Shown here one piece after another: positions 4,751 to 22,246 of a stretch of 64,000 nucleotides of DNA. The stretch is from Methanofastidiosum sp. (GTDB taxonomy: Archaea; Methanobacteriota_B; Thermococci; Methanofastidiosales; Methanofastidiosaceae): NCBI GenBank assembly GCA_013178285.1, contig JABLXD010000012.1, positions 5,174 to 69,173 of the forward strand, given 5' to 3'. The notes under the pieces are model-generated. The model ran no database searches. It saw only the letters and a list, made by a program, of their open reading frames with translations, and was not told the origin of the DNA. The position numbers and the translations under genes are program-made. Each line of letters begins with the position of its first letter. The stretch's first letter is position 1.

Positions 4751-5268
4751 CTCAATTAGGGCGGGCTATTCAACTAAAATACTCTATTCTAGAAACCCTC
4801 ATCACTCTATTTTTAAAAACCTCAAAAAATTCAAAAATTCAATTTTGTAACAATATATATTATTTATTATATATGATTAAATAATTATTGCATTTATTTT
4901 TAAAAATTTTAGGCTATACTAAAATTGCTATTTTTGAAAAATCAGCTTAAAAATTGCCTGAAGCCGAGCCATAAAAATTTCAAAAAATCATGAAAATAAC
5001 AATATATATGCCATATAATATATTTTTGAATAATTATTGCACTAATTAAAATTTTAGATATTCCTAATTTTAAATTATCTAAGGATCTTGAGATTGAAAC
5101 CCAATTACCATGTTTTTTTGTAGTTTCTTCTTGCAAAGCTACTCCATTGAACTCACTGTTTCCTAGTCGTATTTTACTTGTGCAAAGTACCCTAGTTTCT
5201 TTGAATAATCGAGTAACGTGAGAAAAATGCAAACACTCTGCTTTATATTCATATAATAACAATTAGCA

Positions 5269-5282
5269 TAAATTGCAATAAT
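5269..5282. promoter_or_regulatory. Palindromic motif copy (core AATTGCAAT; extended consensus ATAATTGCAATTAT), site 1 upstream of small gene 5489..5686
   Basis: Sequence taaattgcaataat. The 10-mer AATTGCAATT is its own reverse complement. One of six copies confined to 5269–7068. Confidence 0.5.
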
Positions 5283-5320
5283 TTTATAAAATTATATAAT
5301 ATAGAATATAATAATGAATA

Positions 5321-5334
5321 ATAATTGCAATTAC
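5321..5334. promoter_or_regulatory. Palindromic motif copy, site 2 (52 bp from site 1)
   Basis: Sequence ataattgcaattac. Centre-to-centre distance to site 1 is 52 bp. It lies about 160 bp upstream of the ATG at 5489. Confidence 0.5.
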
Positions 5335-5488
5335 CAATTAACATTAAGTTAAAGATTATTATTGAAATTGGATTACCAAAAATTTTTTACAGAATTTTTA
5401 AAATGAAAATGGAATCGGAATTCATTTACCAACTTTTTATAGGGGATAAAAATAAATACTTTGCCGCCCTAAGTAATAAGGTGAGAAT

Positions 5489-5686
5489 ATGGGATTAATG
5501 TCTTGGATAGATAAAAAATCAGGAAAATTAAGCGCCTGGGATATTGCATTTGTTAAAATTGGCGCAATGATCTTTGGCCTTATTATTGGAGCTTACTTCC
5601 CAGTTTTAATAAAACAATACGTTGTACTGCTTATAGTGCTTTTTATACTATTTTCCGCGAAACCTGTTTATGCTGCTTTCAAATAA
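5489..5686 (+). CDS. Small single-TM membrane protein (65 aa), paralog A
   Basis: MGLMSWIDKKSGKLSAWDIAFVKIGAMIFGLIIGAYFPVLIKQYVVLLIVLFILFSAKPVYAAFK. Clear paralog (about 50% identity by eye) of the 63-aa ORF at 6132..6323. Conservation of two copies argues both are real. Confidence 0.55.
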   Translation: MGLMSWIDKKSGKLSAWDIAFVKIGAMIFGLIIGAYFPVLIKQYVVLLIVLFILFSAKPVYAAFK

Positions 5687-5966
5687 ATTCACGGAAATAC
5701 TTTTTTATCCTATTACCCCGGGCTTATTTGAATAAAAAGAAGGACTTTAGATACCTTAATAATAAGTAAACTAGAGTATATCCTAATTGAATAACGCTGA
5801 AAATAACTGCGCGATCTTATGTCTAAAACCGCCTTTAGTTTGAGTCCTAATTATCCCTAAAAAGGTCCTAATATCGTCCTTTTTTAGCGAAATTTACGCG
5901 AAAACCGTCATTACTACGTATAATATACATTATACGCAATATTTGGATATAACTCAAGCACAAAAA

Positions 5967-6003
5967 GTAGGTCAAAAGTGGGTCGAAAGTAGGCCAAAAA
6001 GAG
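5967..6003. repeat. Three tandem imperfect ~12-nt units (AGTAGGTCAAAAGT / GGGTCGAAAGT / AGGCCAAAAAG) in a 445-bp non-coding spacer
   Basis: Read directly: gtaggtcaaaagtgggtcgaaagtaggccaaaaag, pattern RGGYCRAAARNG x3. Locally GC-richer than the surroundings. No ORF covers it. Confidence 0.4.
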
Positions 6004-6131
6004 CCTTTTTCCATATTTCTACCCATTTCGACTATAAACAAGATATTACCGTTTAACTATAAAAATCTTAGTATTACTAAAAAGCGCTTTTTTATTTGTT
6101 TAGGGTAGCTTAGATAAAAATAAAGTATGTT

Positions 6132-6323
6132 TTAGCGAAATGCATCATAGACGGGTTTTATTGAAAATAGCAAAGTAAGTATTATGAATACTATCAGATA
6201 CTGCCTCACAAAGGGAGATATGTAAGCACCGACAATAATCCCAAAAAACATTGCAGCAAACTTAACTAAGCCGATATCCCACACATTTAACTTCTTCCCT
6301 TTCTCATCGATATAGGAATCCAA
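6132..6323 (-). CDS. Small single-TM membrane protein (63 aa), paralog B
   Basis: MDSYIDEKGKKLNVWDIGLVKFAAMFFGIIVGAYISPFVRQYLIVFIILTLLFSIKPVYDAFR. Paralog of 5489..5686 and convergent with it. Confidence 0.55.
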   Translation of the reverse strand: MDSYIDEKGKKLNVWDIGLVKFAAMFFGIIVGAYISPFVRQYLIVFIILTLLFSIKPVYDAFR

Positions 6324-6421
6324 TCCCCTAAGATCGCCCCATCATATAAGAATCTTAACTATTTATATCTACCCGTTAAAACTTTGGGAATTGAATATCG
6401 ATTCCACTTCCAAACTTAAGA

Positions 6422-6435
6422 TAAATTGCAATAAA
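6422..6435. promoter_or_regulatory. Palindromic motif copy, site 3
   Basis: Sequence taaattgcaataaa, about 100 bp upstream of the minus-strand start at 6323. The flank is near-identical to site 1 (ataaattgcaataa). Confidence 0.5.
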
Positions 6436-6487
6436 TTTACATTATTATATTATTGAGTATATAATTTTAAATAATATTTGCAAAAGA

Positions 6488-6501
6488 TAAATTGCAATTA
6501 T
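6488..6501. promoter_or_regulatory. Palindromic motif copy, site 4
   Basis: Sequence taaattgcaattat, a near-perfect 14-bp palindrome. Confidence 0.5.
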
Positions 6502-6539
6502 CTTTCAATATAATATTATGCAAAATATATTTTTATAAA

Positions 6540-6553
6540 ATTATTGCAATTCT
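6540..6553. promoter_or_regulatory. Palindromic motif copy, site 5 (52 bp from site 4)
   Basis: Sequence tttattgcaattct with the palindromic core attgcaat. Overlaps the stop of the 108-aa ORF 6541..6867. Confidence 0.4.
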
Positions 6554-6867
6554 TCTTTGTTTTTATTTTCCCTATTCATCATGAAGGGCAAAGTAGTATA
6601 TGAGGTCGCTATTAATGCAATCCCGATTATCCCAATCACTCTCGCAATTGATACAGTATTCTCCCCAAGCAAAGCGCCATTAATCATCAAGAAAGCCCCT
6701 ATCAATGACAAGAAAAGCCCTATTATGAACTGGATAGCCGCCCTTTTCTTATGGATATTCCCTTTATTCTGGGCCGAAGATCTTTTTGGGCCAGTAAATG
6801 CCACAAAAAGCGCAAGAGCTAATAAAAGTACGCCTATAATAATTAGTATTATTGGCAGATTTACCAT
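6541..6867 (-). CDS. Small membrane protein (108 aa, 2–3 TM helices), hypothetical
   Basis: MVNLPIILIIIGVLLLALALFVAF...FIIGLFLSLIGAFLMINGALLG...IGIIGIALIATSY: coherent TM helices separated by a basic loop. The fully overlapping plus-strand ORF 6557..6871 is taken as its antisense shadow. Confidence 0.4.
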   Translation of the reverse strand: MVNLPIILIIIGVLLLALALFVAFTGPKRSSAQNKGNIHKKRAAIQFIIGLFLSLIGAFLMINGALLGENTVSIARVIGIIGIALIATSYTTLPFMMNRENKNKEELQ

Positions 6868-6967
6868 ATAAATTATATAAAATTGGCATATTTAAGTGTT
6901 TCGTTTATTAAATTATTTTGAAAAAAATTATATTTTAATGAATATTAATACATTAAATCAAAATATT

Positions 6968-7040
6968 GGTAATTCGTTACTAAATTCTATTGTCGAATTC
7001 ATTAAATTCAAATGCTGGTAATTCGTTACCAAATTCCATT
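6968..7040. promoter_or_regulatory. Pair of 24-bp direct repeats (GGTAATTCGTTACYAAATTCYATT) with 49-bp period, upstream of gene 7313..8140
   Basis: ggtaattcgttactaaattctatt at 6968–6991 and ggtaattcgttaccaaattccatt at 7017–7040 (22/24 identical). Confidence 0.45.
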
Positions 7041-7054
7041 TTAGAGCATAAAAA

Positions 7055-7068
7055 TAATTGCAATAATT
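7055..7068. promoter_or_regulatory. Palindromic motif copy, site 6
   Basis: Sequence ataattgcaataat, about 245 bp upstream of the ATG at 7313. Confidence 0.45.
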
Positions 7069-7312
7069 ATTATAATATATATCATATATAATATATATTG
7101 TTACAAAATTGAATTTTTGAATTTTTTCATGTTTTTAAAAATTGGTGATAGAGGAAATTTTAATTGAGTTTTGGCTGATTTAAGGGGCTAAAATGGAGAA
7201 GTTCGAATAGTATCGCCCAGGATATATGTTGTTATATCTGGATATTTTCAAAGAAATAGAAATCGACTATAAAATAGAATGATTTATCTATTAAACAAAT
7301 TATTGACTGTCG

Positions 7313-8140
7313 ATGGAAAATAATAAGATAATATTAATAGTATTACCATTTTTTTTAATTATCGGCACTTTATTTATTGTTCAGGTTAATAATTATAACC
7401 AGAACTTAGAAAAAGACTTAGTAAAAATAAATAGTTTTTATAGTATTAATAACGATTCATATTCAGAAGATTTAAGTTTCGATTATGACTATTATCAAAA
7501 GGATCCATATAATAAAAATATCTTTAATTCTAGTATAATCAGTTATAAATCTCTTCGCGTGAATTTTGGTAAAACTGAAACATCACTTATTCTTGAATTT
7601 CATACATTGAGAAAAGTAAAGGACAAATGGCTTTATTTATATATAAACAATTACTACTCATATTATTTTTTTGGAATAGATGAAATAAAATCTATAAAAA
7701 TAAAAAATAAAGAAGGGAAAGAAAAAACATATGACAAAGAAGATTTAGTAGATAAATGGTTTACAAATGGTAATCTAAAATTAGATCATGAAATGTTTAA
7801 TTCAGAATTCGACGAATATACAATAGAAATACTTATGGAACCTATGCCAATAAAAACAAATGAAATAATAATTCAGAATTGTATACGGGATATAAATTAT
7901 TATTTTGGGTGGAATGCTGATGAGTTTGTTTATATTAGTTCAAATGTTGGGAGAACGAACAACAATGTTATTTATTATTCACCAACAAATATTTCACCAA
8001 TGAATACAAAAATAGAAACTACCATAATTAGAGACAAAACAAAAAATGATTGGAACCTATATATCCAATTTCTAGCAAATGCTCTTGCATTTTCAGTTGT
8101 AATTGTTTCTGCAGGGAAGTATCTACTAGGAAAAAAATAA
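7313..8140 (+). CDS. Hypothetical membrane-anchored protein (N-terminal TM, C-terminal TM plus basic tail)
   Basis: 275-aa ORF with N-terminal IILIVLPFFLIIGTLFIV, an N/Y/K-rich body and a C-terminal FLANALAFSVVIVSAGKYLLGKK. No recognisable catalytic motif. Confidence 0.45.
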   Translation: MENNKIILIVLPFFLIIGTLFIVQVNNYNQNLEKDLVKINSFYSINNDSYSEDLSFDYDYYQKDPYNKNIFNSSIISYKSLRVNFGKTETSLILEFHTLRKVKDKWLYLYINNYYSYYFFGIDEIKSIKIKNKEGKEKTYDKEDLVDKWFTNGNLKLDHEMFNSEFDEYTIEILMEPMPIKTNEIIIQNCIRDINYYFGWNADEFVYISSNVGRTNNNVIYYSPTNISPMNTKIETTIIRDKTKNDWNLYIQFLANALAFSVVIVSAGKYLLGKK

Positions 8141-8184
8141 TAATGGTTAAGATTTTAGTTTAATTAGTAAAAATATAATTATCC

Positions 8185-8294
8185 AAAAATAAAGTCAATA
8201 AGGTTAAATAAAGGAGTGTAAAAAGATTAAAAGACTCTCCTTTTATTTACATCTTTTAGGCCTAGGGGCACGTTTATTTATTGACTTTATTTTT
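8185..8294. repeat. 110-bp structured element: perfect 17-bp inverted repeats (AAAAATAAAGTCAATAA / TTATTGACTTTATTTTT) enclosing an inner hairpin and a GGCCTAGG palindrome
   Basis: Left arm 8185–8201 and right arm 8278–8294 are exact reverse complements. Inner stem aaaggagtgt...actctcctttt at 8211–8244. ggcctagg at 8259–8266. Confidence 0.5.
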
Positions 8295-8462
8295 TTAATG
8301 GCCTATAAAAAGACCTAAAAATCATCTTTTGACGCCTTTAATGAATTCTTTATCTGTATGCGCTTGGCTCCTTAACAAGTGCGAGGGACTACAGTATTAC
8401 TCGAAAGAGTAGAGAGAAGAATTATTAAACTATTTAAATAAATAAACAAAATAATTATAAAA

Positions 8463-8801
8463 ATGATAGAAGGAATTATATTGGGAATAGGACTTCATGC
8501 AAAAGTAAAAGTAAAACAAAAAAGAATAAATAAAAAAAGACCTATTTTAGAATTGGAAGGAGGGCATGATCTTTTTAAAAAAGATAACAAGTGGAACTAT
8601 CTGACTAGAATTATTGATAGAGAAAATGATCATTATTTAGAAGTTATAAAAGATATAAAAACAGAGAAAATTATTAAAAAAGAAGATTGTAAACTTTCAG
8701 ATCATTACGGCCATGGCAGTGCCAAATGGAAAAAGAACAGATATAAGATACTTAGATTTTTTAAAACCATAATCTCATTTTTTAAAAGATTATTTGTCTG
8801 A
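8463..8801 (+). CDS. Hypothetical protein (112 aa), highly basic
   Basis: ORF only. K/R-rich, no motif recognised. Weak coding call in an AT-rich region. Confidence 0.3.
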   Translation: MIEGIILGIGLHAKVKVKQKRINKKRPILELEGGHDLFKKDNKWNYLTRIIDRENDHYLEVIKDIKTEKIIKKEDCKLSDHYGHGSAKWKKNRYKILRFFKTIISFFKRLFV

Positions 8802-9031
8802 TTCTTTAAGATTAGATAACGAAAAACAATATTTTTTTTATAATTCACTTTTTGAACTTCGTCAACAGCATGAATATAGACCCTAGTAGAGAAAATTAAT
8901 TACTAACTCCTCTAAATCCCCATTATTTTCCCTAACTACCCCGCCCTAAACAGCCACAAAATCATTTACGTATAATAATCCTATTTTAGTTAGAAGAAGG
9001 TATTTAAATAAAACGCCAATATATAAGGACG

Positions 9032-9289
9032 ATGACTACCAATGTAAGGCGTGTCTGGGATAAAATGGAATACGAAACTCCTAAGGCCTACGATGCATTT
9101 CTCTCCTATTGTGAGTTGGGCCCAAATAGAAGCCTATCAAAGTTGTCAAAGAATCTCAAGAAAAGCAAGTCGCTTCTCTCACGCTGGTCCGCTAGATATG
9201 ACTGGTTCTATAGGGCTTCCACATACGACAAGTACCTTCATGAAATGGTTATGAGAGAAGTTGCAATTATTTGGGCTATGGTCATTTGA
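9032..9289 (+). CDS. Hypothetical protein (85 aa)
   Basis: ORF MTTNVRRVWDKMEYETPKAYDAFLSYCELGPNRSLSKLSKNL... The composition is less AT-skewed than an intergenic shadow ORF would be. The overlapping frame 9051..9254 is rejected. Confidence 0.3.
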   Translation: MTTNVRRVWDKMEYETPKAYDAFLSYCELGPNRSLSKLSKNLKKSKSLLSRWSARYDWFYRASTYDKYLHEMVMREVAIIWAMVI

Positions 9290-9516
9290 GTATCTAATAT
9301 GCTCAATCTATTAACAAAAAAATAGTATGGCGCATATCTAAACAAAATTATAAAAGAAATAATCGTGAATAATCCAATAAATAAAGGAGTCTTATAATTA
9401 ATTTCCATTATTAGAAATCTCAAGTTGGAATATATAAATGTATATATAATGCGAGTTTATTTTGGTGAATTTCTCAATGAAAAAATATTTCCCTATTTGA
9501 AGAAAAATAAGTATAA

Positions 9517-10044
9517 TTATTTTTTAAAGAAATTTATTTTATCTCCTACTAATGAAACAATAAAAATAGAACTTAAGGTACCAATAAAAGCCGAAAATAA
9601 AATTCCTAAAAATAAGTTAATTCGATCTCTATTCTTATTATATAGAGATATGTCAGTAGTTTGAAAATTTTCATAATCAGCTATTTTGGCCCCACCAATT
9701 AAAGATTCTATATCATTTGATTTATTTCTCAATTCAAAATCAGAGTCCCATAAAATACTATAAGGATAATGATACGAAAATGCCCTCAAAAGATAATCTT
9801 TTTCTAAATCAAAATTCATATTTCTCTTAAATTTTATCTTAATATAAAGGTAAGAATAATTATTGGGATTAAATATATCTTGATTTAATTTTATATGTAT
9901 TGATGAATTATCAAATACAATTTTATCATTATTTATTTTGGAGGAATTATATATATTCTCATAAGCTATACTGAATGTGCGTTTTTCATAATTAGGATAA
10001 TAACGGTACACGTCAATGCTATCAATGTCTTTTGTATTTATCAA
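9517..10044 (-). CDS. Hypothetical protein with C-terminal TM anchor (175 aa)
   Basis: ORF only. C-terminal LFLGILFSAFIGTLSSIFIVSLVG. Confidence 0.35.
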   Translation of the reverse strand: MINTKDIDSIDVYRYYPNYEKRTFSIAYENIYNSSKINNDKIVFDNSSIHIKLNQDIFNPNNYSYLYIKIKFKRNMNFDLEKDYLLRAFSYHYPYSILWDSDFELRNKSNDIESLIGGAKIADYENFQTTDISLYNKNRDRINLFLGILFSAFIGTLSSIFIVSLVGDKINFFKK

Positions 10045-14179: not shown

Positions 14180-17100
14180 TTATATTGAATCCTTCTTCTT
14201 TCCCTTTATTACTTCTTTTGGATCAGGCACGGAATTAGAGTTATTAGAGGAGAATCGACGAATATTTTCTTCCTTTTTGCCTTTAATAACTTCCTTTATA
14301 TCTGGTACAGGAACATATGAATCATTTGAACTAGAAGGCCTTTTCTCTAATAATTCTTTAATTGAAGAGGGTATTTCGGGGGAGGTGTTGTTGTATCTAA
14401 AGTTGTTTGTCCAAGAGCTTCCCTTTTTACTTGATCCATTGTCGCCTTCTTTAAAGGGATTCTCTGGAGCACCGTTATTCTTCTTTTGTTTGAAGTCTTT
14501 GTATGCCCTTTCTACCGATGGAGGAAGATCTAGGTCGATATTTTTGGGAACCACTCTTCCTTTTATTTCTTTCAATTGCTCTTCTTCAAACTCAACATGT
14601 TTTTTATTTTCAATTTCGTTAATTTCATTTAATATTTTAGTCTGAAATTCGTCAAGTTCCTTTCTATCCATTAACTCTATATGACTAACATCCTCTGATT
14701 CAATTCTCTGCTCTGCTATTGCTATATTCTCTTTTCTTTTTTCAATTTCTTCTAAAGTTTTAGTAATTTCAGATCTTAATGATTCTATTTCAAAAGAATC
14801 AAGAGAGGCCAGCTTATCTTGATCCTGTAAAGTTGATTTTAATTCTTCTATATCTTTTCTAATCTCTTCCGGAGGGCCAAATTCTATCCTTGGGGGCCTT
14901 ATATTAATATCCTCTTCTGCTATTGGCATGACCTGTGGAGAATATTTCATTTCGGCCTTTGCATTGTTAATTTTAATTCCCTCTTTTTGTGAAGGTAGTT
15001 CTTTATTAATGACCCCTGCAGATTCCAATTCTTTTCTTAAAGATTCATTTTTTAGACCTTTGGATTCTTGAGATTCATATAAATGGGATAGGGAAAAAGG
15101 TTTCTTTTCTTGAGGTATGCCTTCTTTCTTCTTTGAAAATAATGAAAATTTACTCTTTTGTTTCTGTTTAATTGCAGGAGGCGCAACTTTTTTACCGAGT
15201 AATTCATGACCAATCTGATCTTTAGTTAGTATATTATCTTCACGTGTTGCAAACTCTTTAAACTTATTTTCAATTTCAAGACTTGGAGAGGGAGGTGGTT
15301 GCATTCTTTCTTTGGAGGGTATTTTTTCCTTCTTAGAAAACAGGTCAAAACTTTTCTTCTCTTTTTTAATGCCTCCATCTAGTGATTTAGATTGAGTTCC
15401 GAAGGGAGCTATTGGAGCCTGTTGTTCAGATTTAACAGATTTTTCTTTTTGTCTTGAGAAAACTCCAAATCCTTTTTCGGATTTAGTTGTTTTTTTCTTA
15501 ACTATCTCTGGGCCGGGAGGAGGTGTTCCACCTTTTTGGATCATAGATTTAGTAGATGGCCCTTTCGATCTGGTTGATCTATAGACCGAGTATCCTACTA
15601 CGGACAAAAGTAGTGCAATAATTGCAATTATAATATATGGCGCATATGGGGAAGACTTAATATCCTCTATTGTTTGAGTTACGGCTTGAGGGACACTTGG
15701 TACGCTAGATTGAGGAGCTACTTTTGCTTTAACACTGATTGCTGTTCTTTCAATATCAAAAGATTTTAACTCCTCAAAGGCGTTCATCCAGTAGAACTTT
15801 GAGTCTTCTAAGATAAAGGAGCCAGACTTTGTAGCTTTTATTTGTATTTCTTTTGATACCTCAGCCCCACCTTTAATTTCTTCAATTATAATTTCTTTAT
15901 CTCCAGAAATTATTTCAAATTCTGAAGGAAGTGCTTCAGCTATTTTAACTTCGTATATATCGTCCTTGCCCCAGTTTTTGATATTATATATAATTTTCAA
16001 TACTTCTCCTTCTTCAATTTCATTAGTAGAGATAGTTCTAGAAATTGAAGGTCCCCAAACTGTAACTAATGTAGGGGATAGAGATTTAGTTCCTTTGACG
16101 CCCCACTCGTCTTCATAAGTAGAAGCTGTTTGGCCAATCTGGTATTCTCCGCCTTGAGAAGGAACTAATGTGTATCTTAAAGTAACTCGCTCTTCTGGTT
16201 TCAGTTGGCCTCCCCAATAATTAATACCTGTTGTCAATTGAAGATTTGAAGGTATCCTGTCCTCGATTCTTACATTTTTAGCATCGCCATCGCCAGTATT
16301 AGTTATTATTGTTGTAACAGGGATGATATGCCCAATTCTAACAATATCCGATTCATATTCAGATTCTTGTCTAATCAACTGTATATTTGGAGTCCTTCCA
16401 CCAACAGTTATATTTGTAGATGCTTCAGATTTAGCCTTCTTCGCAGCAATATCTTCAAATTCTGATGAAGTATTGATAGTGAATATCTTATCCTTATTCT
16501 CTTGAAGAACTCTGACTGTGAATTTAGTTGTTTTGGAATCTCCTTGTTTTAAACTATCAACAAACCCTCCAAGTTCTCCGTCTACAAGCTCTATATCCCC
16601 AGAAATAGAGTTGATATAGCTTATTTTCTTTGCAAGACCATCTCCTGTGTTAGTTAAAGTTAGGACAACATCGACATACTTATAATCTGCAAAAGAATAA
16701 TCTTCATTGAAATATTGGATATTGGAAATTGTAATCTTAGGTTCTCCGTTTACTCTTACTGATGTACCTGATGCTATATGTTCAAAACTATGCCCTTCTA
16801 GATCATAATATAATAATTTAGTATCCCCAATTTTATATTCGCCTGGATACGACGCTGTTATGATATAATTATACATTTTTTCCTGTTCTGGTTTTAGTTC
16901 AGGAATTGTATATTCTATTCTTTTTATTTTAGGATTGTCAATCAATCTAAATCCTTCAGGGACATAATCAAGAACCTGCACATCTCTTGCAATTTTATTT
17001 CCAGTATTTCTTACAACTAGCACGACTATAACAGAATCTCCCCTAGATATGGTAACTCTATCCAATTTTTTAAGAATTTCAAGTCTAGGAAATTCCTTGC

Positions 17101-19123
17101 TTACGGTAACAGGCTCAATTTTAGAAGTTGTTTTGTATTTTTTCCCAGCTTCATCTTCAAAAAGTAGTTGAGTTTTAAATTCAAATTCTCCCATTTCTAA
17201 AGCTTTAACTTTGTAGATTAATGTAAATGTTTCATTTTTTGCCATTTTTGGAATATTTGTTGTTGCACTGCCATCAATTAACTCGAATCCGTCAGGAATA
17301 TAATCAATTAGATTTACTTTTGTGGCAGTTATATCTCCTATATTTTTAATTCTAACTTCAACGTCAGTAGTTTCTCCTACAAAAAGTTTTTCTTTTACAA
17401 TATTTCTTGTAATTTGAAATTCTGGTTGTTTTGGTACAATTGTAACTAATGTTTTATCACTTTTTGAATAATCTTGAATTACTTCCTGTTCTTTTTCATT
17501 AAAGTATCCCATTTGGTAGGATAAATCAATTTGGATTGGTGATACCTTTAGATAGTCAGTTTTTGGAGATTTAAATTTAAATACAATCAATCTTGTTTCA
17601 TCAGGTTCCATAGATTTTATTTCAAGGCATGCTTCATTGTCTGAACCACAATAACAATTGTTACCTGTTAAAAAAGTGAAATCTTTAGCTGTTATATGTA
17701 TTTTTACATTTTTTGCAGGTATATCCCCAGTATTTTGAATTTCAGTTACATACCAAAATGTTGTATCTGATTGAGGCTTTTCAATTTCATTTTCAGTTTC
17801 AAATTCAAAATCTTCAGGCCTCATTATTGAATGTATTATTGGAGTCCAAATTACTGTACCTCCACCCATCTCATAAATTGTTAGTTGTCTAATATTTTTA
17901 CAGGTACTATCTTTTCCGATAGTAACAATATCTCCCTGGCGCAATTCACCAAGTTGAACAAATGATCCATTTGTCTCTTCAAAGTTATAGACATATTGGA
18001 TATTTCCATTTATCATGGAAACATTGAAATTGTAAGTTTTTTCATCGAACTCGACAGAGCCGGAGCTTGCATTAATATCTACATCTCCTAAAAGAACAGT
18101 TTTAATCCCTTCCTTACTTCCTCTCAAGAAAGTTCTGTTGGTATCATCTATTTCTCCCCTATATAGTGTTGTTGAATTAATTGATAGTTCGGGTTCTTTT
18201 CTTTTAGTTACTGTTATGTTGAGTTTATATCTACCAAAGTAATTGGCATTTTCGTGATCATTAATTTCATTTACTTTAATTTTAAGAATTTCATCTATGT
18301 ATAATGTATCTCCCGGAACTACCACCTGCTGGATTACCAAGGTACCCTTTCGATAAACTTCTAGAATACCTCTTTCTGGAGGCATTACAGGATGCCTTCT
18401 TTGGAGATCTTTAAGCAATATTGTATAATCTCCTACAACTGTGAGATCTCCAATCTCTATCCATCCCATGAATACGGCATCGGGATCATAATAGGGCCCC
18501 GGTAAAAGGACAAAGTCTTGAGTAATAGTTCCAGAAGGATAAGGCACGTTGACACTTATTTTTTTAGGAAGCCATCCTACTCCAGAAGCTTCAATATCGT
18601 AGAGCCCCCCAAGACCGGAAAGTGAGTAATTACCATCAGTAGACGTTATAGAAGTTGCTAAAACATTTTCCGTTCCAGGATAGTAAGCATTTACAGTTGC
18701 ACCTTCAATTGGTGTTATGCCATCGGGCTGGAAAACATGTCCCACGACACTGCCATTTGTATCTTGGAGCGTTAAATTATAATCGGGCCCACAAGATGTG
18801 ATGCATGTATCTGCCAATGTAGAATTCGAAGTATAGCCCGGAGCATATGCCCTTATTATATACTTACCATGTTCTAATGGATATATATAAAATGTACCAT
18901 TTACATCTGTTGTTGTCATCCCTTTTATGGTGGGGCAAGCATTATTATCGTTAGCATAATGGGCATCAACGATTGCACCGCTGATTCCTTGTGGAGTTGC
19001 ATTAGTATCTGTTATTCGACCAGAAATTACGCCTTGCGCCAAAACTGGAGTTGCAACAACGCTGACCATGAATATCGATAATAAAAATATATTTAGTAAG
19101 TATAAATAATTGGATTTTTGCAT
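14180..19123 (-). CDS. Giant surface protein (1647 aa): signal peptide, carboxypeptidase-regulatory-like domains, multiple DUF11/CARDB-type repeats, one TM helix, ~500-aa K/E/S/P-rich coiled-coil cytoplasmic tail
   Basis: N-terminal MQKSNYLYLLNIFLLSIFMVSVVATPVLAQG. GVISGRITDT...GAIVDAHY and GSVVGHVFQPDG...GATVNAYY (CarboxypepD_reg-like). Repeated [IV]xNTG[DN]xxAKNV...[IV]P.GF units (TITNTGDGDAKNVRIEDRIPSNL, VRNTGNKIARDVQVLDYVPEGF, IKNIGDITATKVNLIDYIPDGF). TM YIIIAIIALLLSVVGYSVY. Tail with PPPGP and a heptad-like EIESLRSEITKTLEEIEKRKENIAIAEQRIE. Confidence 0.85.
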   Translation of the reverse strand: MQKSNYLYLLNIFLLSIFMVSVVATPVLAQGVISGRITDTNATPQGISGAIVDAHYANDNNACPTIKGMTTTDVNGTFYIYPLEHGKYIIRAYAPGYTSNSTLADTCITSCGPDYNLTLQDTNGSVVGHVFQPDGITPIEGATVNAYYPGTENVLATSITSTDGNYSLSGLGGLYDIEASGVGWLPKKISVNVPYPSGTITQDFVLLPGPYYDPDAVFMGWIEIGDLTVVGDYTILLKDLQRRHPVMPPERGILEVYRKGTLVIQQVVVPGDTLYIDEILKIKVNEINDHENANYFGRYKLNITVTKRKEPELSINSTTLYRGEIDDTNRTFLRGSKEGIKTVLLGDVDINASSGSVEFDEKTYNFNVSMINGNIQYVYNFEETNGSFVQLGELRQGDIVTIGKDSTCKNIRQLTIYEMGGGTVIWTPIIHSIMRPEDFEFETENEIEKPQSDTTFWYVTEIQNTGDIPAKNVKIHITAKDFTFLTGNNCYCGSDNEACLEIKSMEPDETRLIVFKFKSPKTDYLKVSPIQIDLSYQMGYFNEKEQEVIQDYSKSDKTLVTIVPKQPEFQITRNIVKEKLFVGETTDVEVRIKNIGDITATKVNLIDYIPDGFELIDGSATTNIPKMAKNETFTLIYKVKALEMGEFEFKTQLLFEDEAGKKYKTTSKIEPVTVSKEFPRLEILKKLDRVTISRGDSVIVVLVVRNTGNKIARDVQVLDYVPEGFRLIDNPKIKRIEYTIPELKPEQEKMYNYIITASYPGEYKIGDTKLLYYDLEGHSFEHIASGTSVRVNGEPKITISNIQYFNEDYSFADYKYVDVVLTLTNTGDGLAKKISYINSISGDIELVDGELGGFVDSLKQGDSKTTKFTVRVLQENKDKIFTINTSSEFEDIAAKKAKSEASTNITVGGRTPNIQLIRQESEYESDIVRIGHIIPVTTIITNTGDGDAKNVRIEDRIPSNLQLTTGINYWGGQLKPEERVTLRYTLVPSQGGEYQIGQTASTYEDEWGVKGTKSLSPTLVTVWGPSISRTISTNEIEEGEVLKIIYNIKNWGKDDIYEVKIAEALPSEFEIISGDKEIIIEEIKGGAEVSKEIQIKATKSGSFILEDSKFYWMNAFEELKSFDIERTAISVKAKVAPQSSVPSVPQAVTQTIEDIKSSPYAPYIIIAIIALLLSVVGYSVYRSTRSKGPSTKSMIQKGGTPPPGPEIVKKKTTKSEKGFGVFSRQKEKSVKSEQQAPIAPFGTQSKSLDGGIKKEKKSFDLFSKKEKIPSKERMQPPPSPSLEIENKFKEFATREDNILTKDQIGHELLGKKVAPPAIKQKQKSKFSLFSKKKEGIPQEKKPFSLSHLYESQESKGLKNESLRKELESAGVINKELPSQKEGIKINNAKAEMKYSPQVMPIAEEDINIRPPRIEFGPPEEIRKDIEELKSTLQDQDKLASLDSFEIESLRSEITKTLEEIEKRKENIAIAEQRIESEDVSHIELMDRKELDEFQTKILNEINEIENKKHVEFEEEQLKEIKGRVVPKNIDLDLPPSVERAYKDFKQKKNNGAPENPFKEGDNGSSKKGSSWTNNFRYNNTSPEIPSSIKELLEKRPSSSNDSYVPVPDIKEVIKGKKEENIRRFSSNNSNSVPDPKEVIKGKKKDSI

Positions 19124-21904: not shown

Positions 21905-21941
21905 GAAAAAATTTATATCTTAAACTTTTTTAAGTTATTGT

Positions 21942-22246
21942 GTGGGCGGATTATTGGCTTCCCTTCGGGGAGGAAGCTCCATCCACCCGGCCAAGATGTG
22001 GCATCAAAAGATGCTTGGGTAAATCCAAGGTAAAGGAACAGAAAAAAACGACCTTTGTCTGATGAAGATGATGTAGACAGAATATGGCAACATATTCTAA
22101 AACTACTGAGAAGACATAGGAAACGGTGGAATACCTTCCCACATGGTGCAAGACCAAACTAAAACCGATGAAACTTGGCCTGAGGTTTGTGGTAGGTCGC
22201 TTAGTTCAATGCCAATATTACAAAAGATGGGCTATAGTCCGTCCAC
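21942..22246 (+). ncRNA. rnpB: RNase P RNA candidate (structured ~305-nt GC-rich RNA; SRP RNA is the alternative)
   Basis: A GC-rich island between protein genes in an AT-rich genome. The 5' GUGGGCGGA pairs with the 3' UCCGUCCAC (9-bp terminal P1-like helix). A GNRA/UUCG-capped hairpin GGCUUCCCUUCGGGGAGGAAGCUCC (P3-like). Segments resembling bacterial/archaeal RNase P conserved regions: GAAACGGUGGAAUACC (cf. GUGAAACGGUGCGGUAAG), GGUGCAAGACCAAACUAAAACC (cf. GAGCAAGGCCAAAUAGG), ACAGAAAAAAACGACC (cf. ACAGAAxxCGGC). Followed by a T-rich tract. Embedded ORFs 21951..22157 and 22143..22388 are rejected. Confidence 0.5.

Follow-up and report, generated by a model that had tools for sequence, protein, structure and literature searches.

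What is the function of a short palindrome that recurs, at strictly kept distances, within one small patch of archaeal DNA? The question is raised by a 64,000-nucleotide stretch of a Methanofastidiosum genome (GenBank contig JABLXD010000012.1; hereafter, the window), in which a sequence-only reading had noticed six palindromes of the AATTGCAAT type next to two small genes, some of them in pairs 52 bp apart, and had proposed a dimeric transcription factor governing a small dedicated regulon. From the comparison of related loci, it appears reasonable to describe the palindrome as one end of a duplicated TATA-N13-ATTGCAAT promoter/operator cassette that is confined to a single conserved island of the Methanofastidiosales. 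Searches of the literature on the motif and on the promoters of this lineage returned nothing relevant and no described regulatory element for the Methanofastidiosales. For these uncultured methanogens, the comparison provides a precisely defined, deeply conserved cis-element. The host being an archaeon, this element has to be read against the archaeal architecture of TFB-recognition element (BRE), TATA box, and start site.

The six AATTGCAAT sites are indeed located at 5271-5279, 5323-5332, 6424-6432, 6490-6499, 6543-6551, and 7056-7064, and include two pairs separated by 52 bp from centre to centre (5275.5 to 5327.5 and 6494.5 to 6546.5); the letters quoted earlier for the flanks of the first and third sites are also correct. 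The 14-mer ATAATTGCAATTAT, with which the family had been described, stands for a genuine family of palindromes but not for its literal members: the six island sites deviate from it by one to three mismatches, and its sole exact match is found at 15618-15631. That copy lies within an open reading frame (ORF) of 1647 aa (14180-19123, minus strand) and is presumably a coincidence. The statement that no copies occur elsewhere in the 64 kb has to be withdrawn, given AATTGCAAT sequences beyond the six at 15620 (within the 14-mer match), 43511, and 53477, all inside long ORFs; in the other intergenic DNA of the window, as delimited by a crude gene map, there is no further copy. The motif is strongly enriched, with 12 strand-hits of AATTGCAAT in the window against 2.7 expected, a count reached in none of 100 shuffles, and with six occurrences of ATTGCAAT in 4751-7312 against 0.22 expected and a maximum of three in 2000 dinucleotide shuffles. 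ATTGCAAT itself is a perfect 8-bp palindrome that holds the only G+C within about 60 bp, and in a logo pooled from 44 units, the information content peaks on it. Together with the conservation described below, the shuffles rule out a chance origin of the motif.

The palindrome turns out to be only the end of a 26-bp repeating unit, TATAT-N13-ATTGCAAT. TATAT stands exactly at +13 in 34 of 62 distinct oriented contexts, that is, in about one of the two reading directions per palindrome, whereas the maximum at any offset was eight in 1000 shuffles. Among all TTGCAAT occurrences in A+T-rich context, in the window and the related loci, variants of the box at 13 nt (TATAC, CATAT, AATAT) are rare. 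Two inverted units standing back to back form a 62-bp module with two TATAT boxes 13 bp apart at its centre, and it is this arrangement that produces the 52-bp spacing. The earlier interpretation of the spacing, about five helical turns and hence a dimeric factor on one face of the DNA, thus stands as far as the number of turns and compatibility with a dimer are concerned, but the pairs are not simply two operators on one face. A third 52-bp pair had been overlooked, leading from 6428.5 to a degenerate ATTTGCAAA centred at 6480.5, as had two degenerate units ending at 4887-4893 (ATTGCAT) and 5036-5042 (ATTGCAC), which brings the total in the window to nine units: M1, M2, the pairs M3, M4, and M5, and the single M6.

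In units M1 (4869-4893) and M2 (5018-5042), both on the plus strand with the palindrome facing right, ATATA (4869-4873 and 5018-5022, respectively) and a 13-nt spacer precede the degenerate palindromes. Module M3 (5271-5332) has palindromes at 5271-5279 and 5323-5332 and inner TATAT boxes at 5293-5297 and 5306-5310, each 13 nt away from its palindrome. Module M4 (6424-6485) combines the palindrome at 6424-6432 with the degenerate partner TTTGCAAA centred at 6480.5, around inner TATAT boxes at 6446-6450 and 6459-6463, and module M5 (6490-6551) has its palindromes, 6490-6499 and 6543-6551, 52 bp apart. M6 (7056-7082, minus strand) consists of the palindrome at 7056-7064, a 13-nt spacer, and TATAT at 7078-7082, and faces left. 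The neighbourhoods of M1 and M6 form an inverted repeat, with arms of 94 nt (4809-4902 and 7049-7142) that are 90% complementary and bracket the core of the island. In the related locus L132 (such loci are designated here by L numbers), M3 (131-192) and M5 (1353-1414) are nearly identical. The likeness between modules is, indeed, greater within one genome than between orthologous modules of different genomes, which points to gene conversion between modules.

Loci encoding orthologues of the small membrane protein A, which is encoded next to M3, were collected from about ten lineages, the proteins being 62-94% identical, and their 240-nt upstream regions were aligned, along with an ungapped stack of M3 from eight lineages. 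Across these eight, the left ATTGCAAT of M3 is 100% and the right one 98% identical, compared with 83% for the 44-nt spacer, which lacks indels and comes in two sequence subtypes, and 61-71% for the outer flanks. The palindromes are, accordingly, kept above the level of spacer and flanks in orthologous intergenic regions, the comparison that the sequence-only reading had proposed. That reading had also named two findings that would undermine the motif, namely, a similar density throughout A+T-rich intergenic DNA and a lack of conservation in orthologous promoters; at the orthologous loci, the motif is neither compositional nor unconserved.

The distribution of the module is equally restricted. 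Metagenomes were scanned with the pattern TTGCAAT-N13-TATAT-N26-ATTGCAA, and matches were taken as genuine at an A+T content of at least 84% over the matched module; 15 of the 42 loci found are genuine, most of them matching on both strands, and all 15 represent the same island. The 28 distinct paired modules all show the 52-bp spacing, with none at 50, 51, 53, or 54 bp. A scan of GTDB (one genome per species) with a stricter pair pattern yielded 73 matches, of which only two are module-like, both on Methanofastidiosales contigs and at the same locus, with one perfect pair per Methanofastidiosales genome. Among viral contigs, ATTGCAAT-N44-ATTGCAAT gave 48 matches but in no case an A+T-only TATA module like those of the island; the spacers of most matches contain G+C, and a few matches belong to other A+T-rich repeats. 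Over 18 partly redundant loci amounting to 227 kb, 85 units were found; each locus holds them in a single cluster no longer than 3.7 kb, at a density of about three per kb and in orthologously fixed positions, and none lies in the approximately 195 kb outside the clusters. A further locus, L178, was left out as a metagenome contig that is probably a chimeric assembly; from about position 250 onward, its island-like A+T-rich DNA gives way abruptly to G+C-rich coding sequence of bacterial appearance.

The anatomy of the units, their conservation, rigid spacings, and confinement to the island are observed directly, and so is their orientation relative to genes. The genes concerned are mini-gene A (5489-5686, plus strand; 65 aa with two hydrophobic segments), mini-gene B (6132-6323, minus strand; 63 aa, TTG start), which is present only in the lineages of the window and L132, and a gene for a 108-aa membrane protein (6541-6867, minus strand), which in all lineages examined has M6 at its 5' side and the right unit of M5 at its 3' end. 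Single units turn the palindrome side toward a gene 5' end and the TATA side toward gene 3' ends: M6 points to the 108-aa gene in every lineage, a single unit faces a cupredoxin gene in L085, L136, L148, and L164, and another (L003, 8090) faces an NHL-repeat gene. Among the paired modules, the right unit of M3 faces gene A, the left one faces a gene for a 153-aa membrane protein in L134 and L174, and the left unit of M4 faces gene B in the window and L132. From this consistent orientation toward 5' ends, we infer that transcription proceeds from the TATA box outward, through the palindrome. Two earlier assignments change as a result of the comparison. The site at 7056 had been placed upstream of 7313-8140, but it points instead to the 108-aa gene, and 7313-8140 is absent from the other lineages. 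The three sites described as upstream of gene B have that position in the window, but in most lineages, where a DUF1801 gene takes the place of gene B, they lie between two convergent stop codons.

On the palindrome side of M2 there is a lineage-variable non-coding stretch, and the DNA between M2 and M3 differs among lineage groups. An ORF of 106 aa on the minus strand (4942-5262) was considered as a divergent target of M3 and rejected, being unrelated to the 153-aa gene and not intact in relatives; it is probably spurious.

The distance of 13 nt to TATAT is the constant feature in relation to the core promoter, several TATA-like boxes being readable around the palindrome and the orientation being taken from gene context. 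The scale of a promoter in this genome is provided by the archaeal RNase P RNA gene of the window (21942-22246, plus strand; Rfam RF00373, 164 bits), which has a canonical GAAAAAA-TTTATATC promoter about 26 bp upstream: with TTTATATC at 21912-21919 and the RNA starting at 21942, the TATA-to-start distance is 26.5 bp. Other promoters of the window are of the AAAGC-TTTATATA type and, like that of the RNase P RNA gene, lack TTGCA; the palindrome is therefore not a generic start-site element. Likewise, a generic archaeal initiator or box B was rejected, TTGCA being absent from the expected place in every other intergenic region of the window.

The reading that we favour, tentatively and with a probability that we would put a little short of even, is that ATTGCAAT is a putative operator of the repressor type, located between TATA box and start site, the classical place for repressor operators in archaea, and recognised by a homodimeric transcription factor of the Methanofastidiosales. 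The reasons are that the palindrome is perfect, that it is held at a rigid distance downstream of a TATA box, and that it belongs to one set of promoters only. The cassette of TATA-like box, 13 bp, and ATTGCAAT would have been duplicated about nine times within one small island of membrane mini-proteins and a few variable cassette genes. With a TATA-to-start distance of about 26 bp, the palindrome would cover approximately -11 to -4, with the start a few nucleotides outside it, so that a bound dimer would allow binding of the TATA-binding protein (TBP) and transcription factor B (TFB) but block RNA polymerase, as is usual in archaeal repression. Cassettes standing back to back would make a divergent promoter with operators 52 bp apart on the same DNA face, and two dimers on such a pair could cooperate. 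Thus, of the dimeric factor proposed earlier, the dimer itself is accommodated by a short, perfect palindrome at a fixed distance from the TATA box, but the picture of two operators spaced along a single face requires revision. In this scheme, we infer that a protein binds, where transcription starts and in which direction it runs, and that the effect is repressive rather than activating.

Several observations weigh against this scheme. No gene for a transcription factor or other DNA-binding protein was found beside the island in any lineage (about 30 neighbouring ORFs, compared with Pfam), and classical helix-turn-helix dimers usually have operators longer than 8 bp, with half-sites that do not abut. 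The host DNA is so A+T-rich that the TATA-like box can be read in more than one place. Where DUF1801 is present, as in most lineages, the stop codons of the convergent DUF1801 and 108-aa genes leave room between them for nothing but M4 and M5, and the right palindrome of M5 touches or overlaps the stop codon of the 108-aa gene; in L134, M2 directly adjoins the 153-aa gene at its 3' end. Units in such places cannot be sense promoters there and may instead be sources of antisense RNA, or architectural sites or roadblocks. Furthermore, the leaders from palindrome to start codon are 50-215 nt long and contain runs of T5-T7, and genes A, B, and the 108-aa gene have separate proximal TATA-like boxes, all of which suggests that the cassettes may be an upstream layer of control and, perhaps, not the main promoters of the mini-genes.

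A close functional counterpart of the operator reading is YtrASa of Sulfolobus acidocaldarius. This protein represses only two loci, which encode membrane proteins of unknown function, through an operator placed over the start site, behind the TATA box, and steric hindrance of polymerase recruitment is described as common among archaeal repressors (PMC6746942). The island shares with this system the short palindrome directly downstream of a TATA box, the tiny set of targets, the small membrane proteins among them, and, presumably, the blocking of RNA polymerase recruitment. Unlike the island motif, an 8-bp ATTGCAAT with abutting half-sites, that of YtrASa is a 14-bp semi-palindrome with an A/T-rich centre; its gene is co-encoded with a target, whereas no regulator gene adjoins the island; and the island has about nine repeats, some in back-to-back pairs and some at gene 3' ends. 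Binding and start sites have been demonstrated for YtrASa, whereas those of the island are predicted from sequence. Ss-LrpB of Sulfolobus solfataricus recognises boxes with the consensus TTGCAAAATTTGCAA, at three regularly spaced sites (PMC1802622). The likeness here lies in the letters of the TTGCA/TGCAA half-site and in the presence of several regularly spaced palindromes in one A+T-rich control region, and the cooperative binding of Ss-LrpB on one DNA face recalls the 52-bp pairs. However, the Ss-LrpB box has 15 bp with a required 5-bp A/T centre, whereas the half-sites of the island share the central GC without any spacer; the island has no Lrp/AsnC gene beside it; and the host is euryarchaeal rather than crenarchaeal. 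An Lrp/AsnC-type box, a palindrome of 13-15 bp whose two 5-bp half-sites flank an A/T-rich centre of 3-5 bp, was rejected because TTGCA and TGCAA overlap and the units have no second TGCAA 10 bp away.

Two euryarchaeal regulators provide further comparisons. TrpY of Methanothermobacter binds TRP boxes (TGTACA) in the divergent trpY-trpE promoter region. These, too, are short, hexamer-type palindromes repeated in a divergent promoter region so as to overlap the core elements of both promoters, but the sequence is different and trpY adjoins its own sites; to our knowledge, neither a fixed 13-bp coupling to the TATA box nor a multi-copy cassette has been described for TrpY. NrpR of Methanococcus maripaludis recognises GGAA-N6-TTCC operators in the nif and glnA promoters. 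Its sites resemble the modules in being paired palindromes that follow a TATA box, and a dimer of dimers binds them cooperatively; they differ in sequence, in their tandem placement behind one promoter rather than around two TATA boxes, and in the dispersal of the regulon over the genome.

The same rigid distance to TATAT might be expected of elements that are read by a single basal complex, and the most probable alternative to the operator is a specialised core-promoter element without a dedicated repressor. ATTGCAAT would then lie at about -10, as a promoter-proximal or initiator-like part of an unusually strong promoter class or one specific to a paralogue of a basal factor, and the cassette would have spread by local duplication. 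We consider this unlikely. In its favour, the promoters of stable RNA genes in methanogens contain at the start site a 'box B', ATGC, and the homogenisation of modules within genomes (M1 and M6 of the window, M3 and M5 of L132) suggests interchangeable cassettes. The motif is, however, missing from about 25 other promoter regions of the window, including that of a stable RNA gene, the one for RNase P RNA; a basal complex, being directional, has no need of a perfect palindrome; G+C in the middle of a region that must melt is atypical for a promoter-proximal element; and in L085, a unit denoted M0 has no TATA box 26 bp from the central G.

The location of some units at gene 3' ends raises a second alternative, namely, that they are architectural or bracketing sites at which one protein loops or condenses the DNA or acts as a roadblock to polymerase, or else sources of convergent antisense transcription, such that each mini-gene would be switched by competition between sense and antisense. 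Units are indeed found at both ends of the 108-aa gene (M6 on the 5' side, the right unit of M5 on the stop codon, where its palindrome overlaps the last codons, on the minus strand GAA TTG CAA TAA). In L134, the 153-aa gene likewise has a unit at either end (the left unit of M3, and M2), and the unit at the 3' end of DUF1801 is conserved across lineages; the units cluster at about three per kb, with none elsewhere. Antisense RNA or looping would, however, have to be postulated, and the TATA-like box coupled so tightly to every palindrome would be needless at a purely architectural site. We regard this explanation as improbable, a shade more so than the core element.

An elaboration of the antisense variant, which is speculative and, if anything, slightly less probable, combines several of these features into a self-contained switch. 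Several small membrane-protein genes would have TATA-N13-ATTGCAAT on their 5' side and a second, inward-pointing copy at the 3' end; a single putative regulator would decide between sense expression and silencing by convergent antisense transcription; and the modules would double as recombination handles between strains. The logic would be like that of type I toxin-antitoxin systems, with membrane mini-proteins as the products. If it is true that the 3'-end units are antisense promoters, the island would be a tidy natural case of archaeal convergent-promoter control; otherwise, the palindrome is one more operator-type motif.

Reversing the direction of reading, ATTGCAAT could be the site of an activator dimer, upstream of the adjacent TATA box and centred at about -46, that recruits TBP and TFB in the manner of Ptr2; the start site would then fall near the opposite palindrome. 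The 13-nt spacer often ends A-rich, like the local BRE (ATAAAAT-TATATAA compared with GAAAAAA-TTTATATC of the RNase P RNA promoter), and paired modules would be divergently transcribed in this case as well. Single units (M6 in L001 and L130, M0 in L085, and the unit at 8090 in L003) would, however, be directed into gene 3' ends, with the neighbouring 5' ends behind them, which makes an activator site a doubtful proposition, less credible than the architectural one.

The gene content between the modules differs by lineage, in the cupredoxin gene, the 153-aa gene, and the choice between gene B and DUF1801. In most lineages, a DUF1801 gene on the opposite strand replaces gene B between identical flanks (window 6132-6420 compared with L085 2700-3060), and the sequence coding for the C-terminus of DUF1801 is, as its reverse complement, the leader of gene B. 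L148 and L172 encode a gene A product 94% identical to that of the window and yet carry DUF1801, so that the B/DUF1801 state does not follow the similarity or phylogeny of gene A; this discordance suggests recombinational cassette exchange at the slot. It might also be taken as a sign of a recombination or mobile element, that is, of attC-like hairpins of a cassette array or of a palindromic repeat of the MITE (miniature inverted-repeat transposable element) or REP (repetitive extragenic palindromic) type. The modules resemble integron attC sites and REP or MITE sequences in being about 60 bp long (62 bp) and near-palindromic, with conserved inverted ends, a variable centre, and strain-variable neighbouring genes. 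However, mirror complementarity is 0.66 within a module as against 0.71 between arms of different modules; being no higher within modules, it indicates that near-palindromy results from two copies of one consensus and not from a selected hairpin. A hairpin, cruciform, or attC reading was rejected for want of covariation between the arms. Nor does any integrase adjoin the island (only L006 has an rve gene in the vicinity, a single one at a distance of about 3.5 kb); the genes are on both strands in mixed orientation; and the positions are orthologously fixed in one island, with no dispersed copies in the approximately 195 kb of flanking DNA or elsewhere in the metagenome scan. A mobile element is, therefore, very unlikely. 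Least probable of all is a replication origin in which A+T-rich unwinding elements would be flanked by inverted initiator-binding repeats: stretches of 60 bp with 88-93% A+T do lie between inverted repeats, but the motif is unlike archaeal origin recognition boxes (ORB elements), genes are interleaved with the modules, there is no orc1/cdc6 among the neighbouring ORFs scanned against Pfam (a set that did not comprise every ORF of the window), and the GC skew has no inflection at 5-7 kb, changing instead near 12 kb and 48 kb, where the gene strand appears to switch.

Returning to the operator reading, the genes that the cassettes would govern have more in common than the 26-bp unit. Small genes A and B had been described as paralogues, and their products are, indeed, 51% identical; a profile search assigned to the same family 151 representatives at E<=0.001. 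The family, which is widespread but has no name, consists of proteins of about 65 aa that contain two hydrophobic segments, and those most similar to mini-protein A bear the label Candidatus Methanofastidiosa or Methanofastidiosum. Neither the mini-genes A and B nor the 153-aa gene nor the 275-aa ORF to the right of the island has a match in Pfam. Upstream of gene A, where a second element, ATGAAAATGGAATCGGAATTCATTTACCAACTTTTT, is nearly invariant, a near-invariant leader block (5403-5441, plus strand; ATGAAAATGGAATCGGAATTCATTTACCAACTTTTTATA) may combine a second operator with a TATA-like box proximal to the gene; on the 3' side of the block stands a conserved element resembling TATAAATA (5448-5459). 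The leader block of gene B (6375-6411, minus strand) is related to it, and in the DUF1801 lineages the same DNA encodes, on the opposite strand, the C-terminus of DUF1801. The leader of the 108-aa gene contains two 49-bp tandem repeats (6947-7044, minus strand), each with a TGGTAA-N4-TTACCA palindrome that is, again, related to the leader block of gene A. A second element of the type GGTAATTCGTTACCAA is thus common to the leaders of all three genes, in most cases with a short T-run behind it, and could act as an attenuator or as a second operator. For the gene A leader, RNAalifold predicts one invariant 7-bp hairpin with no compensatory pairs and a positive covariation term. A structured RNA leader or riboswitch at gene A was rejected, there being no covariation and no match in Rfam.

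Because the unit and the second leader element are both common to gene A, gene B, and the 108-aa gene, co-regulation of the three is plausible, and to this extent the dedicated regulon proposed earlier gains support; it is, however, a single island of at most 3.7 kb rather than a dispersed set of promoters. As for the stress or metal response that had been suggested, the sole hint is the cupredoxin gene that stands behind a unit in some lineages. What emerges is a compact island whose membrane mini-proteins are uncharacterised and probably under common control, and both the 26-bp unit and the 62-bp module derived from it could be used as bait for the regulator, with ATTGCAAT compared to ATTATAAT.

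Several minor features surround these genes. On the 3' side of gene A, about 400 nt of non-coding DNA (within 5687-6131) are conserved across lineages, including an invariant, nearly symmetric TATA-like element, TACGTATAATATACATTATACGCAATA (5915-5941), and a hairpin followed by a T-run, CTAAAAAGG...CCTTTTTTAG (5857-5887), in place of which L132 has a different G+C hairpin with a T-run; tandem 11-nt repeats, AAAAGTAGGTC, occur around 5962-5996 in the window and in L132. This stretch may encode one or two small RNAs, although RNAalifold found no covariation in it. Searches of Rfam returned only two chance-level matches in 3-10 kb at E<=1 and, for the whole window at gathering score, only the RNase P RNA; there are no tRNA genes in the window, and a C/D-box small RNA on the 3' side of the units was rejected, no box C or box D being apparent by inspection. 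In L085, which is a GTDB representative genome, the gene A orthologue (2050-2247) has an in-frame TAG at codon 6 (atgggatttacttctTAGata), which makes it a pseudogene unless the assembly is in error.

The ORFs beyond the right end of the island, in 7313-10044 (275, 112, 85, and 175 aa), have no threshold-passing Pfam match and no counterpart in any related locus, and this segment has the lowest G+C content of the window, 0.27; it looks like a strain-specific, possibly acquired segment. On the left, the gene next to M1 varies among the loci, encoding a radical SAM protein, a squalene-hopene-cyclase-like protein, or a cupredoxin. After its stop codon, at 4751-4790 of the window, stands the motif TTAGGGCGGGCTA(A/T)TC(A/G)ACTAAAATA, which marks the left boundary of the island and recurs at the equivalent place in L001, L003, L006, and L085.

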